From Desulfovibrio sp. (lineage in GTDB: Bacteria > Desulfobacterota > Desulfovibrionia > Desulfovibrionales > Desulfovibrionaceae): DNA of 64,000 nt. Of the stretch, positions 31,436-62,691 are shown in pieces. The position numbers and the translations under genes are program-made. Location: assembly GCA_022839785.1 (NCBI GenBank), contig JALHJW010000010.1, forward strand, positions 23,669 to 87,668, written 5' to 3'. Each line of letters starts with the position of its first letter. Positions within the stretch are counted from its first letter, which is position 1. A model generated the notes under the pieces. That model was given only the letters and a program-made list of their open reading frames with translations. It did no database searches and was not told the DNA's origin.

Positions 31436-31511
<76 letters not shown>

Positions 31512-49388: not shown

Positions 49389-49580
49389 AGGGGTTTTCTC
49401 CGGGTACGCGTGCGGGGGGCGAAGGTAGACGTTTGACCCCCAAAAGGCAACAGGCCGGAGGGGCGAGGGCCGGGATGCGCATCCGTATTGCAATTTGGCG
49501 TGGCTTTCGGCAGAACATACGGGGTAGACGGCCAAAAGGGGGAGGCCCCTCTGCGCCGGACCGAACAGCAAGGAGCGACC

Positions 49581-52154
49581 ATGCGTCCGATCAGAAGCTT
49601 CAGCGTTGTCCCGAGACTCCCTCCCAAGCTGGAGGGCATGTGGGAACTGGCCTACAACTTCTGGTTCGCGTGGACCGACGCGGTGACCGACCTCTTCTCC
49701 CAGATCGATCTCGATCTCTGGCGGGCCTGCTACGGCAACCCCGTGGCCTTTCTCAACCAGGTGCCGCAGCGGACGCTGGAGGAGTTGTCCAGGGACGAAT
49801 TCTTCGTGGAGCGCGTGCGCGACGCGCAGAAGAGCCTGCACGACTACCTCGCCCGCACCACCTCGCCCGTCTCCTTTCCCGGCGCGGGCCGTGATACGCC
49901 CGCCGTGGCCTACTTCAGCGCCGAGTTCGGCCTGGACGTGAGCATGCCCATCTACTCGGGGGGCTTGGGCATCCTGGCCGGAGACCACCTCAAGTCCGTC
50001 TCCGACCTCAACGTGCCCCTGGTGGGCATCGGCCTGGCCTACAAGAAGGGCTATTTCCGGCAGTACCTGACTCCGGACGGCTGGCAGCAGGAGCGTTATC
50101 CCGAGTCCGACTTCGAGCAGCTGCCCATGCGCCTGGTCAAGGACGACGAGGGCCGCGCCGTGACCATCTCCGTGGACATGGCCGGGCGCGAGTGCCGCGC
50201 CCAGGTCTGGCGCGTGGACGTGGGCCGCATGCAGCTCTATCTTCTGGACTCCAACGTCCCGGAGAACGACGCGGATCTGCGCGAGGTCACGGACCAGCTC
50301 TACGGCGGCGACCTGACCATGCGCATCCGGCAGGAGATACTGCTCGGCATCGGCGGCATCCGCGCGCTGTGGGCCATGGATCTTCGCCCCACGGTCATCC
50401 ACATGAACGAGGGGCACAGCGCCTTCGCGGGGCTGGAGCGCATCCGCGTGTTCATGTCCGAGAACGGCCTGTCCTTCGAGGCGGCCATGGAGCTGGCGGC
50501 CTCCACCGCGGTCTTCACCACGCACACGCCCGTGCCCGCGGGCAACGACCGCTTCGACCCGGGGCTGATGCAGCCCTACTTCGAGAACTACGCCCGCAGC
50601 CTCGGCCTGGCCTTCAAGGTCTTTCTGGCCCTGGGACGCGAGGACCCGCGCGACGACGCCGAGTCCTTCTGCATGACCGTGCTGGCGCTGCGCCTCTCGC
50701 GCTTCAACAACGGCGTCTCCGAGCTGCACGGCAAGGTCTCGCGCAACATGTGGAAACGCGTCTGGCCGCAGTACCCGGTGGAGGACGTGCCCATCGACGC
50801 CATCACCAACGGCGTGCACCAGCCCTCGTTCGTGGCCCCGGACATGGCCGTGCTCTACGACCGCTACCTGGGGAGCAACTGGAAGGAGGACCCGGACTGC
50901 CCGCGCGTCTGGCGGCAGGCACAGAACATCCCCGATTCCGAACTGTGGCGCACCCACGAGCGGCTGCGCGAACGGCTCACGGACTACGTGCGCCAGCGCG
51001 TGGCCGAGACCCTGCGGAAACGCGGCGCGCGGCGGCGCGAGGTCGAGGAGGCGCAGGAGATACTGGACCCCCGCGCCCTGACCATCTGCTTCGCCCGTCG
51101 TTTCGCCACCTACAAGCGGGCCAACCTGCTGTTCATGGACGTGGAGCGCCTGAAGCGCCTGGTGACCAACCCGGACCGGCCCGTGCAATTCATCTTCGCG
51201 GGCAAGGCGCATCCCCAGGACAACGAGGGCAAGAAGCTCATCCAGCAGATCGTGCAGCTCTCGCGCACGCCCGAGCTGCGCAACAAGATCGTGTTCATCG
51301 AGGACTACGACATGGAGGTCGCCAAGCACATGGTGCAGGGCGGCGACGTCTGGCTGAACAACCCGCGCGTGCCGCTCGAAGCCTGCGGCACCTCGGGCAT
51401 GAAGGCCATGGCCAACGGCGTGCTCAACGTCAGCACCCTGGACGGCTGGTGGGCCGAGGCCTGGCGGCCGGACAGCTCCACGGGCTACGGCATCGGCCGG
51501 GGCGAGATCTACGACGACTGGGGCTACCAGGATTTCGTGGAGAGCCAGACGCTTTACAACGTCCTTGAGAACGACGTCGTGCCCGACTTCTACGACCGCG
51601 GCCACGCCAACATGCCGCGCGGCTGGGTCAGGCGCATGAAGACCGCCCTGGTCGAGCTTGGGCCGGTCTTTTCCGCCCACCGCATGGTGGAGGACTATTG
51701 CCGCAAGGCCTACATCCCGGCCTTCGCGAACTACAAGAAGCTGGCCGCGGACGGCTTCGCCAAGGCCAAGGAGCTGGCCGCCTGGCGCATGGACCTCATG
51801 ACCAAGTGGAGCGAGATACAGATCAGGGACGTGCGCACCGAGGCCCCGGAGCAGGTCTTCGTGGGCGAGCCGTTCATCGTCGAATGCGAGATCTGGCTCG
51901 ACGGCCTGACCCCGGACGACATCCGGGCCGAACTCTACGCCGGGCCCCTCAACCAGGACGGCGACCTGGCGCAGCGACGCACCGTGCCGCTTGCGGCCGA
52001 GGGCAAGGGCAAGGACGGCTGGCACACCTACCGGGGCGAACTGGTGCCCCAGGAGGCGGGACGCTACGGCTTCACCATCCGGCTGCTGCCCTACCACCCG
52101 CTGCTCATCGACCCGCGTTCCCTGGGGCTGATCCGCTGGGTGGAGGCGCGCTGA
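49581..52154 (+). CDS. glgP: Alpha-glucan (glycogen) phosphorylase
   Basis: YFSAEFG, YSGGLGILAGD, HMNEGH, FTTHTPVPAG, ARRFATYKR, EACGTSGMK; AGGAG RBS. Confidence 0.96.
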   Translation: MRPIRSFSVVPRLPPKLEGMWELAYNFWFAWTDAVTDLFSQIDLDLWRACYGNPVAFLNQVPQRTLEELSRDEFFVERVRDAQKSLHDYLARTTSPVSFPGAGRDTPAVAYFSAEFGLDVSMPIYSGGLGILAGDHLKSVSDLNVPLVGIGLAYKKGYFRQYLTPDGWQQERYPESDFEQLPMRLVKDDEGRAVTISVDMAGRECRAQVWRVDVGRMQLYLLDSNVPENDADLREVTDQLYGGDLTMRIRQEILLGIGGIRALWAMDLRPTVIHMNEGHSAFAGLERIRVFMSENGLSFEAAMELAASTAVFTTHTPVPAGNDRFDPGLMQPYFENYARSLGLAFKVFLALGREDPRDDAESFCMTVLALRLSRFNNGVSELHGKVSRNMWKRVWPQYPVEDVPIDAITNGVHQPSFVAPDMAVLYDRYLGSNWKEDPDCPRVWRQAQNIPDSELWRTHERLRERLTDYVRQRVAETLRKRGARRREVEEAQEILDPRALTICFARRFATYKRANLLFMDVERLKRLVTNPDRPVQFIFAGKAHPQDNEGKKLIQQIVQLSRTPELRNKIVFIEDYDMEVAKHMVQGGDVWLNNPRVPLEACGTSGMKAMANGVLNVSTLDGWWAEAWRPDSSTGYGIGRGEIYDDWGYQDFVESQTLYNVLENDVVPDFYDRGHANMPRGWVRRMKTALVELGPVFSAHRMVEDYCRKAYIPAFANYKKLAADGFAKAKELAAWRMDLMTKWSEIQIRDVRTEAPEQVFVGEPFIVECEIWLDGLTPDDIRAELYAGPLNQDGDLAQRRTVPLAAEGKGKDGWHTYRGELVPQEAGRYGFTIRLLPYHPLLIDPRSLGLIRWVEAR

Positions 52155-57169: not shown

Positions 57170-57309
57170 GGCGATCCTCCATGTTTCCGGGGCAAAGAGA
57201 AAATCCCCGCGTCCGTCGGCCGTCATGTGCGACGCCGGGAGGCCGGGATTTCCACAGGAAGGTCCGAACCGGCAGTTGCCCCCGTCGCCGGTGCGGATGG
57301 CCGCATGAT

Positions 57310-57479
57310 GTCCGGACAGGTCTTCTGGCTCTCCCGGAGCCCGCTCCGCCTTCCCGCCCGAGGGCAGTGGCATGCGTGGAGGGGCCGATTTCCCCGTTGC
57401 CGGGGCCGGGATTACAGCGGCGAGGGCCGCTCCGGTCTCGCACCGGATTCCCAATTGAGCGCGGGTCGCGCATCCGAAC
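57310..57479 (-). ncRNA. Cobalamin (B12) riboswitch
   Basis: Minus strand: AATTGGGAATCCGGTGCGAGACCGGAGCGGCCC..GCTGTAA, GCCACTG..GGGAAGG, AGCCAGAAGACCTG; P1 GTTCGGAT/GTCCGGAC; lies upstream of the cbiK-ABC-cbiL operon. Confidence 0.93.
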
Positions 57480-57485
57480 GGCGGA

Positions 57486-57516
57486 TGTATAGGACGGAAG
57501 GGGGGAGGCGTGTCAA
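57486..57516 (-). promoter_or_regulatory. Candidate sigma70 promoter for the riboswitch leader
   Basis: TTGACA (57516-57511) followed by TATACA, but with a long (19-nt) spacer. Confidence 0.4.
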
Positions 57517-59137: not shown

Positions 59138-59764
59138 ATGCAGCAGGCCATTGCGGCCATCACGGACGGCAAGTGCCTGATCTACCCCACGGAGACGCTC
59201 TACGCCGTGGGTGCGGGCGCTTTTCACGCCAGGGCCGTGCAGGAGATCCTCCGGCTCAAGGCGCGTCCGGCGGATAAACCCCTGCCCATCATCATCGGCA
59301 GCATGGACCAGCTCGGCATGGTCACGGGCTGGTTCTCCAAGGCTTTTGCCCGGCTGACCGCCTTCTTCTGGCCGGGACCGCTCTCCGTGCTCGTGCCCAC
59401 GGGCCGCAAGCTGCCCGAGCAGGTGCGCGACGGGGGCGGCTTCACCTCGGTGCGGCTGACCGCCCATCCCCTGGCCCGCGAGCTGTGCCTGCGCGCGGGC
59501 ACGCCGCTCATCGCCACCAGCGCCAACCGCACCGGCCGTCCGCCCGCCTCCCGGCCCGAGGAGATCGACCCAGCCCTGGCGGGGGAGGTGGCCTGCGTGC
59601 TGCGTGACAAGCCCTGGCCCGGCGGCGGGCTGCCCTCCACCGTGGTTCGCTGTTTGGGCACGGCGGACCTGGAGGTCCTGCGCGAAGGCGCCGTGAGCCG
59701 GGCCGCCCTGGAGGCCGCGGGCTTCACCCTGCGCGAGGCGGGCGGCGTCCGGCGTCCGGTATGA
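59138..59764 (+). CDS. tsaC: L-threonylcarbamoyladenylate synthase (TsaC/YrdC/Sua5)
   Basis: YPTETLY, LKARPADKP, FWPGPLS, ATSAN, PSTVV, LREGA. Confidence 0.9.
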   Translation: MQQAIAAITDGKCLIYPTETLYAVGAGAFHARAVQEILRLKARPADKPLPIIIGSMDQLGMVTGWFSKAFARLTAFFWPGPLSVLVPTGRKLPEQVRDGGGFTSVRLTAHPLARELCLRAGTPLIATSANRTGRPPASRPEEIDPALAGEVACVLRDKPWPGGGLPSTVVRCLGTADLEVLREGAVSRAALEAAGFTLREAGGVRRPV

Positions 59765-59826
59765 AAATTTGAACCGGCCGGAGGCCGTAGCGCGGGTTTC
59801 GGCCGCTCCGGTACAAATTCTGGTAC
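59759..59826. promoter_or_regulatory. Enhancer-like palindrome pair 1 (GTAT-N8-GAAC 59759-59774; GTAC-N8-GTAC 59811-59826)
   Basis: Two related 16-bp sites, 52 bp start-to-start, upstream of sigma54 promoter 1. Confidence 0.65.
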
Positions 59827-59903
59827 CGGCCGGGACTGGGGAAACACCTCGCGTTCCGGTGCAAGGCGTTGGAAAAGCGGAATCTTTCGCCATGTCCCGG
59901 TGT

Positions 59904-59920
59904 TGGCACAGTCCCTGCTA
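59904..59920 (+). promoter_or_regulatory. sigma54 (-24/-12) promoter 1
   Basis: TGGCACAGTCCCTGCTA with GG(59905-6)-N10-GC(59917-8). Confidence 0.78.
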
Positions 59921-59929
59921 GAAAAAAAC

Positions 59930-59995
59930 GCACTTCCTTCCTTTTTTTGCCGAAACCGGCTTTCACGGGGTGGTCCCGTCAAAGCCGGTTTTGCA
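59930..59995 (+). ncRNA. Putative sigma54-dependent small RNA, copy 1
   Basis: Starts at the predicted +1; C/U-rich 5' strand, then an 11-bp plus 5-bp stem with GTGGT loop and a short U run; paralogue at 60444. Confidence 0.62.
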
Positions 59996-60271
59996 TTGTC
60001 GGGTCTGGCTTTCGGATCGCCGCCTCCTGTTTCGGGTATTGTCCGCGACCCGGAATTTCGCTCCTCCCTCCCGTACAAATTTATGAACCGGCGGCGTCGT
60101 TCCGGCCTGCGCGGGGTGGGGAAGCGCGGTCCGCTGCGCCGCCGCGTCCGGCTTGTGGACGTTTCCTCCTGAAATCGGCCGTCCGGCGGCCGCGACGCGC
60201 TGCTGTGCCCGTGTCCGTGGCGCGGCGGCAGGCCGGACAGGAGGGCAGACCCGGCCGCGCCGCCCGGAGGG

Positions 60272-60339
60272 GTACAAAAACATGTACCGCCGCCGGGCTG
60301 TTTTGGGGCTGCGCCCGGGAGGAGTACAAATTGTGGAAC
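60272..60339. promoter_or_regulatory. Enhancer-like palindrome pair 2 (GTAC-N8-GTAC 60272-60287; GTAC-N8-GAAC 60324-60339)
   Basis: Same motif and same 52-bp spacing as pair 1, upstream of sigma54 promoter 2. Confidence 0.7.
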
Positions 60340-60374
60340 GGCAGGACGCGTGGAAATTCGGGGCTTCTTTGTTG

Positions 60375-60387
60375 TAATTAATTGATA
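60375..60387 (-). promoter_or_regulatory. IHF binding site
   Basis: Reverse complement TATCAATTAATTA is an exact match to WATCAANNNNTTR, within an AT-rich tract between enhancer and promoter. Confidence 0.7.
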
Positions 60388-60417
60388 TGTAATGATATTT
60401 TTTGTTTTTTGAGGCGT

Positions 60418-60434
60418 TGGCACGATCTCTGCTA
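60418..60434 (+). promoter_or_regulatory. sigma54 (-24/-12) promoter 2
   Basis: TGGCACGATCTCTGCTA with GG(60419-20)-N10-GC(60431-2). Confidence 0.82.
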
Positions 60435-60443
60435 GATTGAGAT

Positions 60444-60510
60444 CACCTTCCTTTCTTTGCTGAAACCGGCTTTTGCGGGGTGGTCCCGCCAAAGCCGGTT
60501 TCGTGTTTTC
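60444..60510 (+). ncRNA. Putative sigma54-dependent small RNA, copy 2
   Basis: C/U-rich 5' strand, 12-bp plus 5-bp stem with the same GTGGT loop, compensatory G-C for copy 1 A-U, U-rich tail. Confidence 0.65.
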
Positions 60511-60688
60511 CGGCCGGTCGCGTCCGTCTCTTTTTCCGGTAAAAGAGCGCAGCGGCGTGATTTCTTTGGGAGCACCCGGCTGCTTTGCCTTGTCACGGGC
60601 CATGATTTCCCCTACTCTCGAAACTCGGAAATGTTTCGGCCGGGCCGCGCCCGGTCCGCCCACGCCTTCTGCCGGTACCGGAGACGCC

Positions 60689-61195
60689 ATGCTCAAGACG
60701 ATCCTCTGCCCGCACTGCGGCCGAGGGATTTCCGTGTTCGCCAACCCTGCGCCCACGGTGGACATCCTGGTCTACCTGCCGTGGAAGGGGGTGATCCTTG
60801 TGGAGAGGGCGAACGAGCCCCACGGCTGGGCCCTGCCCGGCGGCTTCGTGGACGAGGGGGAGAGCGCGGAGCACGCCGCCGTGCGCGAGGCGCGCGAGGA
60901 GATAGGGCTGGACGTGCAGCTCACAGGCCTTCTCGGCGTCTACTCACGGCCCGACCGCGATCCCCGCTCCCACACGCTGTCCGTGATCTACACGGCCCTC
61001 CCCCTGACCCCCGACGACCCCCGGGCGGGAGACGACGCCCGCCGCGCCGCCTGGTTTCCCCTGGACCGCCTGCCCGCGCCCGTCGTCTTCGACCACGCCG
61101 AGATTCTGCGCGATTTCGCCGATTCGCTGGCGCGGGCGGGCCGTTTCGCCGGGGCCGTGCGTCCCGCCACCGCAGCCGCTCCCCGCGCCCCATAG
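60689..61195 (+). CDS. NUDIX hydrolase with N-terminal CxxC
   Basis: CPHC; Nudix box [23 protein letters not shown]; GGAG RBS. Confidence 0.9.
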
Positions 61196-61203
61196 GAACC
61201 GCC

Positions 61204-62691
61204 ATGCCCGCAGCCGAGCGCGACCGCTACGACATCGTCTTCGTGACCTCGGAGATGTTTCCCTTCTCCAAGACCGGCGGTCTGGCCGACGTGCTCGGCG
61301 CGCTGCCTCCGGCCCTGGCCCGTCTGGGGCTCAAGGTGGGCGTGGTGACGCCGCTTTACGGCCGCATGAAGGCCGAGGAGTTCGACCCGCGCCTGGTCTC
61401 CTCGGACTGCCACGTGGGCTACCCCTGGCCGCCCATCACCGCGGAAATCTACCAGACAGAGTACTACGGCGTGACCGTCTGGTTCGTCTCGCGCGACGAG
61501 TTCTTCGACCGCCGCCAGTACTACAACACCTACAAGGGCGACTATTTCGACAACTGCGAGCGCTTCACCTTCTTCAGCCGCGCCGCGGTGGAATGGCTCA
61601 AGCGCCTCGGGCGCGCGCCGCGCATCGTGCACGTCAACGACTGGCAGTCCGGCCTGGTTCCGGCCTGGATACATTTCCTGAAGCGCACCGATCCCTATTG
61701 GAAGGACACGCGCACGGTCATGACCATCCACAACCTGGCCTTCCAGGGCCGCTTCTCCTCGCGCCTCTTCTTCGACTCCGGCCTGCCGCACGAGGCTTGG
61801 CACATGGACGGCTGCGAGTTTTGGGGCGACTTCAACCTGCTGAAGTCGGGCATCGCCTATGCCGACGCCATCACCACGGTCAGTCCGTCCTACGCCGCGG
61901 AGATCCTGACGCACGAGTTCGGCTGCGGCCTGGAGGGCATCCTCAACAAGCGCGCGGGCTCCCTGCGCGGGATCATCAACGGCGCGGACTACGACGTCTG
62001 GGACCCCAAGCGGGACCGCTACATCCCGTCCTGCTACGCGGCCGACCGCATGACCGGCAAGATGTGGTGCAAGAAGAAGCTGATCCGCGAGTACTACCTC
62101 TCGGACATGCTGGAGCACCGCCCCATCCTGGGCTTCATCGGCCGCCTGCGCCGGCAGAAGGGCATCGATCTGCTCATCGACATCATGCCCGAGGTCATGG
62201 CCATGAACGTAGGCGTCATCATCCTGGGCGAGGGCAACCTCGACTTCGAGGCCCGGCTCCTGGAGATGATGGAGGAATATCAGGGGCAGCTGCACGTCAT
62301 CGTCGGCTACACCGAGGAACTGGCCCACCGCATCCAGGCGGGCTGCGACATCTTCCTCATGCCCTCGCGCTACGAGCCCTGCGGCCTGACCCAGATGTAC
62401 GCCCTGCGCTACGGCACGCCGCCCGTGGCCACGGCTGTGGGCGGCCTCAAGGACACCATCGTGCCGTACCCCTCGGACGAGGCCACGGGCTTCACCTTCG
62501 CCCGGCCGGACAGCCGCCTCTTCCGCGACGCCGTGCGCGATGCGGTGCGGTGCTGGGAGGATTCGGAGTGCTGGGACGGCTTGGTGCGCCGGGCCATGGC
62601 CAGCGATTTCTGCTGGGATCGCTCGGCCGAGAGGTACCTGGAGCTGTACCGCGACCTCGGTCTGGCGCCCAGGCAGGATTTTTTGCGTTGA
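61204..62691 (+). CDS. glgA: Glycogen synthase (ADP-glucose type)
   Basis: [49 protein letters not shown]. Confidence 0.96.

Follow-up and report, generated by a model that had tools for sequence, protein, structure and literature searches.

Two predicted sigma-54-associated RNA modules downstream of tsaC

We analyzed a 64,000-nucleotide stretch of DNA from Desulfovibrio sp. (assembly GCA_022839785.1, contig JALHJW010000010.1, positions 23,669 to 87,668; hereafter the window, with positions counted from its first letter). In the 924-bp gap (59765 to 60688) between tsaC and the NUDIX hydrolase gene that precedes glgA, we identified two homologous modules, each composed of a sigma-54-type promoter, upstream enhancer-like sites and a predicted short RNA with a CU-rich 5' end and a hairpin (Table 1). 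The module was conserved across the order, its hairpin covaried among homologs, and no conserved open reading frame (ORF) was present. These predicted RNAs represent a real, strongly conserved and apparently undescribed small RNA (sRNA) family of a known kind.

The first-pass annotation of this DNA had proposed twin sigma-54-dependent sRNAs at this place; all of its sequence observations were reproduced, and comparison with relatives supported its reading in each part. It had also found no credible ORF in the gap, which was borne out by comparison of ORF translations with relatives. The ORFs of the gap matched relatives over the RNA modules alone, and did so in several frames and on both strands; what is conserved is nucleotide rather than protein sequence. 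Nucleotide similarity to relatives was likewise limited to gap positions 138-249 and 650-738, which correspond to the two promoter and RNA modules. Neither predicted RNA contained an ATG.

Table 1. Features of the tsaC-NUDIX-glgA region (window positions)
Feature	Position	Strand	Description
tsaC (Sua5/YciO/YrdC family)	59138..59764	+	Upstream flank; Pfam PF01300, E 5.8e-44
Distal enhancer-like site, copy 1	59758..59775		GGTATGAAAATTTGAACC; ~-146 from -24 element; 14/18 vs GGTACAAAATTTTGTACC
Proximal enhancer-like site, copy 1	59810..59827		GGTACAAATTCTGGTACC; ~-94; 52 bp from distal site
Predicted sigma-54 promoter 1	59904..59920	+	TGGCAC-N5-CTGCT; TGGCACAGTCCCTGCTA; GG 59905-6, GC 59917-8
Predicted sRNA copy 1	59930..59994	+	~63 nt; unpaired CU-rich tract 59933-59951, hairpin 59951-59993, U-run 59989-59992
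Extra enhancer-like site	60072..60089		CGTACAAATTTATGAACC; between copies; 14/18
Distal enhancer-like site, copy 2	60271..60288		GGTACAAAAACATGTACC; ~-147; 15/18
Proximal enhancer-like site, copy 2	60323..60340		AGTACAAATTGTGGAACG; ~-95; 52 bp from distal site
IHF consensus site	60375..60387	-	TATCAATTAATTA; 27% GC island between proximal site and promoter 2
Predicted sigma-54 promoter 2	60418..60434	+	TGGCAC-N5-CTGCT; TGGCACGATCTCTGCTA; GC 60431-2
Predicted sRNA copy 2	60444..60509	+	58-66 nt; unpaired CU-rich tract 60446-60461, hairpin 60459-60504, tail UUUCGUGUUUU
Candidate sigma-70-type promoter, NUDIX-glgA operon	60590..60618	+	TTGTCA-N17-TACTCT; 3' of copy-2 hairpin, ~100 nt 5' of NUDIX gene
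NUDIX hydrolase gene	60689..61195	+	Downstream flank; Pfam PF00293, E 9.3e-26
glgA	61204-62691		3' of NUDIX gene; from gene calls

Promoters and enhancer-like sites

Two near-consensus -24/-12 promoters had been reported 514 bp apart, and this is where we found them (starts at 59904 and 60418). The string TGGCAC-N6-TGCT occurred just twice in the 64 kb, versus 0.10 matches expected, and none of 100 shuffled sequences contained two or more. With regard to the -24 GG and -12 GC elements of the TGGCAC-N5-TTGCW frame, these two matches are TGGCACAGTCCCTGCT and TGGCACGATCTCTGCT.

The gap also holds five copies of a palindromic site of ~18 nt (GGTACAAATTCTGGTACC and variants, of the form GGTACAAA..TTTGTACC). 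A search of the whole window for matches to GGTACAAAATTTTGTACC at no fewer than 13 of 18 positions returned four sites, all within the gap; the proximal site of copy 2 is a member of this repeat family but falls below the cut-off and is weaker than the other sites. A site similar to the extra one between the copies was present at the equivalent relative place in a related metagenomic contig (L004). When 95 distinct promoters of the family were examined, sites at the same cut-off occurred at 2.52 per kb in the 260-nt zone upstream, compared with 0.058 per kb in the remainder of these loci, a ~40-fold enrichment. They cluster at -90 to -180 and are often paired, commonly 52 bp apart and, in Pseudodesulfovibrio, 40 bp apart.

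An exact match to the integration host factor (IHF) consensus WATCAANNNNTTR was found only once in the 64 kb, at 60375-60387, and copy 1 had no exact match to this consensus. A -24/-12 promoter combined with enhancer sites and a site for DNA bending is the textbook sigma-54 architecture, in which an IHF site is frequent and not obligatory. By their motifs, both predicted promoters lie in complete architectures of this type, with paired upstream palindromes and, for copy 2, an IHF consensus site.

Sequence and fold of the predicted RNAs

The transcription start of copy 1 was placed 12 nt after the -12 GC. From such starts, each RNA is predicted to begin with a single-stranded CU-rich segment (CCUUCCUU(C/U)CUUU..UUUGC), followed by a hairpin of 17-18 bp and a U-run. 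The hairpins correspond to inverted repeats at 59953-59991 and 60462-60502, with arms of 17-18 nt, 94% complementarity and a 5-nt loop, and the pattern did not recur elsewhere in the 64 kb even with 3 mismatches allowed. Both hairpins were predicted to be stable: copy 1 had a minimum free energy (MFE) of -30.1 kcal/mol (z -4.5) and a covariance-model score of 93.8 bits, and copy 2 an MFE of -31.9 kcal/mol (z -4.8) and a score of 83.4 bits.

Several particulars of the first-pass annotation were reproduced here. It had described a conserved unit of ~60 nt behind each promoter with diverging flanks, and segments 59936-60003 and 60446-60513 were indeed 85% identical. The compensatory change in the stem (A59965-T59979 versus G60475-C60489), the retained internal mismatch (C59964/C59980 versus T60474/C60490) and the identical 5-nt GTGGT loop were all present as claimed.

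The loop sequence G(U/C)GGU (window 59969-59975 and 60479-60485) also occurs on dissimilar stems in Humidesulfovibrio, Desulfocurvus, Nitratidesulfovibrio and several metagenome-assembled genomes (MAGs). Copy 2 has (A)UCACCUUCCUUUCU at its 5' end (60444-60460), as do loci L020, L054 and L106. We take this sequence to be a near-mimic of the anti-Shine-Dalgarno (anti-SD) region, as it presumably corresponds to the 3' tail of bacterial 16S rRNA, GAUCACCUCCUUUCU, plus one U.

Conservation of the module at the tsaC locus

Homologs of TsaC, of which the nearest were those of Desulfovibrio sp. X2 (74%) and Desulfohalovibrio reitneri (69%), were used to fetch nine tsaC-downstream gaps: those of the window, X2, D. 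reitneri, L004, Oleidesulfovibrio, Desulfobaculum, Maridesulfovibrio, Desulfonatronum and D. ferrophilus. This synteny set was chosen by TsaC with no requirement for the 5' RNA sequence (the seed, below) and is hence free of seed bias. The RNA module was present in all nine gaps, in one to four tandem copies: two in X2, L004 and Desulfobaculum, one in D. reitneri, Desulfonatronum, D. ferrophilus and Oleidesulfovibrio (the last with a TGGCAT promoter), and four in Maridesulfovibrio with a 303-bp period. The predicted folds in this set had z values of -3.1 to -6.5.

Multiple alignment of 13 synteny-chosen copies showed that the invariant columns are the -24 GGC, the -12 TGC and the RNA 5' segment CC.U.C...UUU.C, with variation in the spacer and in the hairpin sequence. 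For example, the hairpin of D. reitneri is wholly unlike that of the window in sequence, yet the 5' tract CCTTCCTTCCTTTTTTTGCCG is retained. In Desulfonatronum, NUDIX-glgA is absent from the tsaC locus and the module is present; the module is linked to tsaC rather than to glycogen genes.

Copy 2 of the window and copy 2 of L004 are identical over 58 nt. The two copies define a c1 type (..CCUUUUUUUGCCG) and a c2 type (..UUUCUUUGCUG), each with its own ortholog in X2 and in L004, suggesting that the duplication is old and that both types have been maintained. The first-pass annotation had called the RNAs twins and likened them to redundant sRNAs known elsewhere; their homology stood up, and they are probably not simply redundant. 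Their seeds differ slightly, each seed type is kept in relatives, and the two copies probably overlap in function without being identical.

Covariation of the hairpin

A covariance model was built from four close sequences and used to align 29 forward-strand homologs, 24 of them distinct; a stricter cut-off in the model search excluded reverse-strand matches to the near-palindromic hairpin. Standard pairs occupied 96% of the cells in the hairpin alignment, and 12 of the 17 pairs showed changes on both sides. These values were reached in none of 500 shuffles. When the 3' partner was slid by 1-3 columns, pairing fell to 35-58% and no more than five pairs had double changes. Selection on RNA structure, which the first-pass annotation had proposed from the two copies, was thus supported, and the alignment indicates that the hairpin is real and under selection. 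RNAalifold applied to a plain MAFFT alignment of the 29 homologs returned no structure, with indels of the 3' arm misplaced. What selection has kept is in essence a hairpin of the terminator type; the signal specific to the RNA lies in the 5' tract, which is unpaired and is the most conserved part of the RNA.

Wider distribution and paralogs

We scanned one genome per species (GTDB) with the pattern TGGCMC-N6-TGC-N12-16-CTTCCTTYYTTT. This identified 99 stretches, of which 84 contained the full module; these 84 were labeled Desulfovibrionaceae, as nearly all were, or were unlabeled MAGs. Their labels included Pseudodesulfovibrio, Humidesulfovibrio, Nitratidesulfovibrio, Desulfocurvus, D. piger, D. 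desulfuricans, D. falkowii and D. caledoniensis, together with unnamed Desulfovibrionaceae and MAGs designated "Deltaproteobacteria" or "Proteobacteria". The other 15 matches, from Spiroplasma, Flavobacteriia and other taxa, had no hairpin. In every homolog, the first 15-22 nt were predicted to be unpaired and were followed by the hairpin and a U-run; the U-runs were longer in homologs than in the window copies. Judged from these comparisons, the module (promoter, CU-rich 5' end and hairpin) is conserved across Desulfovibrionales and the sequence between modules is not. The family seems to belong to the best-conserved non-coding elements in these bacteria.

Additional arrangements were observed in individual genomes. 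Near-identical whole modules were repeated in tandem in L007 (6059-7382, five copies with a 227-bp period), L016 (3690-4813, four copies, 355 bp) and L106 (4023-5040, four copies, 303 bp); the two copies of the window are old and diverged, unlike these arrays. Three Nitratidesulfovibrio genomes (N. oxamicus, N. liaohensis and strain 1201_IL3209) had three dispersed paralogs each (sets L014/L103/L095, L089/L023/L020 and L075/L042/L087), one of them located after tsaC and the other two, at loci unrelated to each other, having the same terminator hairpin. One Nitratidesulfovibrio paralog type has a second CU motif (UUUUCCUCC), and in L034 (1-1669) a ZMP/ZTP riboswitch and the end of an rRNA operon (23S-5S) are found ~3 kb from a paralog. 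Another type, found in D. desulfuricans, D. piger and D. falkowii (L062 5273-5341 and L056 1835-1900, both on the minus strand, and ~20 similar loci), contains three pyrimidine motifs: 5' CCUUCCUUUCUUUUGC, internal CCUCCUCC and a CCUCCCC loop. It lies 20-110 nt upstream of a same-strand arginase-family gene and, given this neighbor, a cis role is possible there.

Proposed function

We propose that the two RNAs are trans-acting sRNAs, transcribed by sigma-54 RNA polymerase under the control of an enhancer-binding protein (EBP), whose 5' anti-SD-like seed blocks ribosome binding on target mRNAs; we assign this reading a probability of roughly 0.7. In this model, an EBP encoded elsewhere would bind the paired palindromes GGTWCAAAA..TTTTGWACC, 52 bp apart and centered ~95 and ~147 bp upstream. 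DNA bending, for copy 2 with the help of the intervening IHF site, would bring the EBP to the promoter, where it would activate sigma-54 RNA polymerase at the -24/-12 element. Transcription would begin ~12 nt past the -12 GC and end at the hairpin and U-run, yielding an RNA of ~58-66 nt whose first 15-20 nt would remain single-stranded. This CU-rich end resembles the anti-SD tail of 16S rRNA and would most likely pair in trans with purine-rich ribosome-binding sites (RBSs; GGAGG or GGAAGG, with a GCAAAA-like sequence before), and such pairing would repress translation of the target mRNAs. For CCUUCC, possible partners are GGAAGG and, through one G-U pair, the canonical GGAGG. Transcription itself, the start and end of the transcript, the activator, the pairing and the direction of regulation are all predicted here from sequence features.

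Several observations weigh against this model. A duplex-energy scan of the 64-kb window for targets performed no better than with shuffled seeds. Conservation of the seed in the 84 loci found by pattern is partly by construction, as the pattern required it, and the alignment in which covariation was scored was fitted to the model and composed of related sequences. Copy 1 ends in a U-run of just UUUU and copy 2 in the similarly short UUUCGUGUUUU; under a strict rule that demands 5 or more T in 8, no terminator was called in the gap, so that read-through is possible. No EBP is encoded in the window or near most loci of the family, and six 7-nt strings representing the half-site had no matching site in the table of EBP binding sites of D. 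vulgaris Hildenborough (PMC4641369, supplement).

The RBS region of the glycogen phosphorylase gene (CAGCAAGGAGCGACCATG, window 49560-49582, plus strand) can be paired with CUUUCUUUGCUG of copy 2 over ~10 bp, including two G-U pairs. This pairing is indistinguishable from chance in the GC-rich window.

Some of the same features could suit a different arrangement, in which the modules act in cis as leaders or attenuators: a NUDIX-glgA-glgB glycogen operon would be transcribed from the sigma-54 promoters, and the hairpins would serve as conditional terminators that gate read-through. The weak U-runs of the window fit this arrangement, as do the co-orientation of the module with NUDIX-glgA, 150-400 nt upstream of it in most genomes, and the D. 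falkowii and D. piger paralog placed 20-110 nt upstream of the arginase-family gene. We nevertheless consider it unlikely. Copy 1 has nothing but copy 2 after it, complete modules form arrays of 4-5 in relatives, opposite-strand genes intervene between the RNA and NUDIX in Desulfobaculum and Nitratidesulfovibrio, and Desulfonatronum has no NUDIX-glgA and a convergent next gene. Moreover, in 10 of 17 loci the interval from the hairpin to NUDIX contains a conserved TTGTCA -35-like hexamer, and the other paralogs have unrelated neighbors. The earlier statement that copy 1 is not simply a leader therefore holds, in view of the copy that follows it, the tandem arrays in relatives and the convergent or opposite-strand neighbors in three relatives.

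Slightly less probable still is that the RNAs sequester a protein instead of base-pairing, for example a pyrimidine-tract binder, Hfq, ribosomal protein S1 or a factor that recognizes the G(U/C)GGU loop. Multi-copy sigma-54-dependent sponge RNAs such as CrcZ/CrcY are known elsewhere, and retention of a GUGGU or GCGGU loop on quite different stems in several genera would be expected of a protein-binding site; on the other hand, the loop differs in D. reitneri, Pseudodesulfovibrio, Oleidesulfovibrio, Maridesulfovibrio and D. ferrophilus, the RNAs contain no repeated GGA, CANAANAA or A-rich motifs, and the invariant part is a single short 5' tract, as is typical of a seed. That the modules are repeated DNA with no RNA product, such as a duplicated regulatory region, a relic or a palindrome of the repetitive extragenic palindromic (REP) type, is very improbable. 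The near-palindromic hairpin does score on the reverse strand too, but only two such hairpins occur in the 64 kb (with up to 3 mismatches), always behind a promoter and enhancer sites. What is conserved across the order is the promoter, the tract near the transcription start and a hairpin fold with covariation, not the sequence between modules. The check for a dispersed REP-like repeat, which had been named as a way to refute the sRNA proposal, thus gave a pattern that is not REP-like.

The trans-acting sRNA model may be extended to a broader scenario, which we offer tentatively and regard as less likely than not. Here, the RNAs would be an ancestral sRNA family of the whole order Desulfovibrionales, anchored after tsaC, whose 5' end mimics the 16S anti-SD tail and whose dosage is set by tandem amplification of whole modules (1 to 5 copies). 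As the output of one orphan EBP, the family would act as a broad translational brake on mRNAs with strong SD sequences, possibly tied to the physiology of carbon storage as glycogen.

Search for the activator

The enrichment of the enhancer motif across family promoters points to one conserved EBP that would serve most of the family. No EBP gene was found in the 64-kb window, and nearly all loci of the family likewise had none within a few kb. Exact consensus sites of LuxO, CbrB, NtrC, GlrR and NifA were absent from the gap. A GAFPGA string in the window was considered as a sign of an EBP and rejected, as it lies in a spurious frame. EBP genes near three family loci were DVU3305-like and DVU2106-like by their DNA-binding domains and are probably unrelated.

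In D. ferrophilus (L108 778-2205, minus strand), a divergent gene for a PAS-type sigma-54 activator adjoins spoU-tsaC, ~1.5 kb from the enhancer sites of the RNA. Its DNA-binding domain (..NWARSTLWRKMKKH) resembles that of DVU2960, an EBP that has no assigned regulon in PMC4641369. By its position and similarity, this protein is a candidate for the cognate activator.

Relationship to known small RNAs

Sulfate-reducing Desulfovibrionales have unusually many sigma-54 activators. Rfam 15 contained no match to the RNAs, in agreement with the first-pass annotation, which had recognized no described family. With gathering thresholds applied, neither a search of 12 homologous loci nor one of the whole window gave a match at the RNAs, and at E values up to 10 the window region gave chance hairpin matches only (best 28.6 bits versus a threshold of 92). 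The Rfam 15 models for Qrr, CrcZ, Pxr and GlmY/GlmZ were among those not matched. A literature search found no description of this family.

The nearest functional analog appears to be the Qrr family of Vibrio (Qrr1-5, sigma-54- and LuxO-dependent and Hfq-dependent). Both groups comprise several homologous short sRNA genes with their own sigma-54 promoters and activator sites, a single-stranded pairing region followed by a terminator hairpin (predicted for the window RNAs), and a copy number that varies by species. However, there is no homology in sequence or structure (Rfam RF00378 was unmatched) and the gap has no LuxO-type TTGCAWWWTGCAA. Qrr genes are dispersed, whereas the window RNAs are tandem by tsaC, shorter, with a single hairpin and an anti-SD-like seed at the extreme 5' end.

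Pyrimidine-rich anti-SD motifs are shared with CcsR1-4 and other "cuckoo" RNAs (Rhodobacter and other alpha-proteobacteria) and with RsaE/RoxS (Firmicutes), and CcsR genes form tandem arrays of 2-5 homologous short RNAs. In CcsR and RsaE, the motifs are located in hairpin loops and the promoters are of RpoHI/HII or sigma-A type, whereas in the window RNAs the unpaired 5' end bears the motif and every unit carries a predicted sigma-54 promoter of its own. CcsR is also co-transcribed with a DUF1127 gene, and the window RNAs had no Rfam match to CcsR or RsaE. Another group, CrcZ/CrcY (Pseudomonas, CbrB), GlmY/GlmZ (enterobacteria, GlrR) and NrsZ (NtrC), resembles the window RNAs, as proposed here, in that an sRNA under EBP and sigma-54 control is the output of a signaling system, and in the occurrence of homologous pairs. 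The window RNAs differ in that they are much shorter, lack A-rich Hfq/Crc motifs, have no Rfam match to these families and, in the gap, no exact CbrB, GlrR or NtrC consensus sites.

Sigma-54-dependent non-coding RNAs (ncRNAs) have already been reported in Desulfovibrio at other loci (PMC3333781, PMC4641369, PMC4045070). D. vulgaris Hildenborough has four, located 3' of DVU0653 and DVU0679 (Dv_sRNA2) and 5' of DVU2357 and DVU3282 (PMC3333781, PMC4641369), and the EBPs of these ncRNA regulons are DVU0653, DVU0679, DVU2359 and DVU1419. Two small RNAs of D. alaskensis G20, at 3627439(+) and 86651(-) of CP000112, depend on RpoN, are unannotated and have had their 5' ends mapped (PMC4045070). The Hildenborough and G20 RNAs and the window RNAs have in common the bacterial group, the promoter class and their nature as unannotated short transcripts (predicted ones in the window). 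At least three of the Hildenborough RNAs adjoin EBP genes (DVU0653, DVU0679, and DVU2359 beside DVU2357), unlike the window RNAs. The motifs of these three EBPs, TGTCCGC..GCGGACA, CGTGCG..CGCACG and TTACGA..TCGTAA, also differ from the enhancer motif of the window. This comparison covered neighboring genes and enhancer motifs. One of the G20 RNAs may be an ortholog of the window family, since an Oleidesulfovibrio relative has the module after tsaC; the string expected in such an ortholog is ..ACCUUCCUUCUUUUGC...

Almost no sRNA in Desulfovibrionales has an assigned role (2019 preprint, 10.1101/803072). The family described here is a candidate for Rfam: its place in the genome is fixed, its promoters and enhancer sites form a clear architecture, and conservation of its seed is sharp. 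Its enhancer motif provides a handle on an orphan EBP, and together they offer a testable post-transcriptional regulon in organisms involved in corrosion, gut sulfide production and metal cycling. The advance would lie in the new family and its regulon; the principle is already known from Qrr, CrcZ, GlmY/GlmZ and the earlier Desulfovibrio reports.

Other features of the window

A simple consensus scan for promoters and terminators called nothing in the gap, including the TTGTCA candidate listed in Table 1. A TTGTCA -35-like hexamer was present 55-157 nt 5' of NUDIX in 10 of the 17 loci checked, with a weak -10 element, and counterparts of the window's candidate (60590-60618) were found in L002, L003, L004, L087, L106 and L108. 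This hexamer and the weak -10 are probably the NUDIX-glgA operon's own sigma-70 promoter.

Outside the gap, the window contains a cobalamin riboswitch (Rfam RF00174, 80.8 bits; 57298-57492, minus strand) 5' of a cluster of cbiK, ABC-transporter and periplasmic-binding-protein genes, with a counterpart in D. reitneri (L003 2282-2478). The sole tRNA gene of the window encodes tRNA-Val (anticodon CAC) at 31436-31511 on the plus strand.

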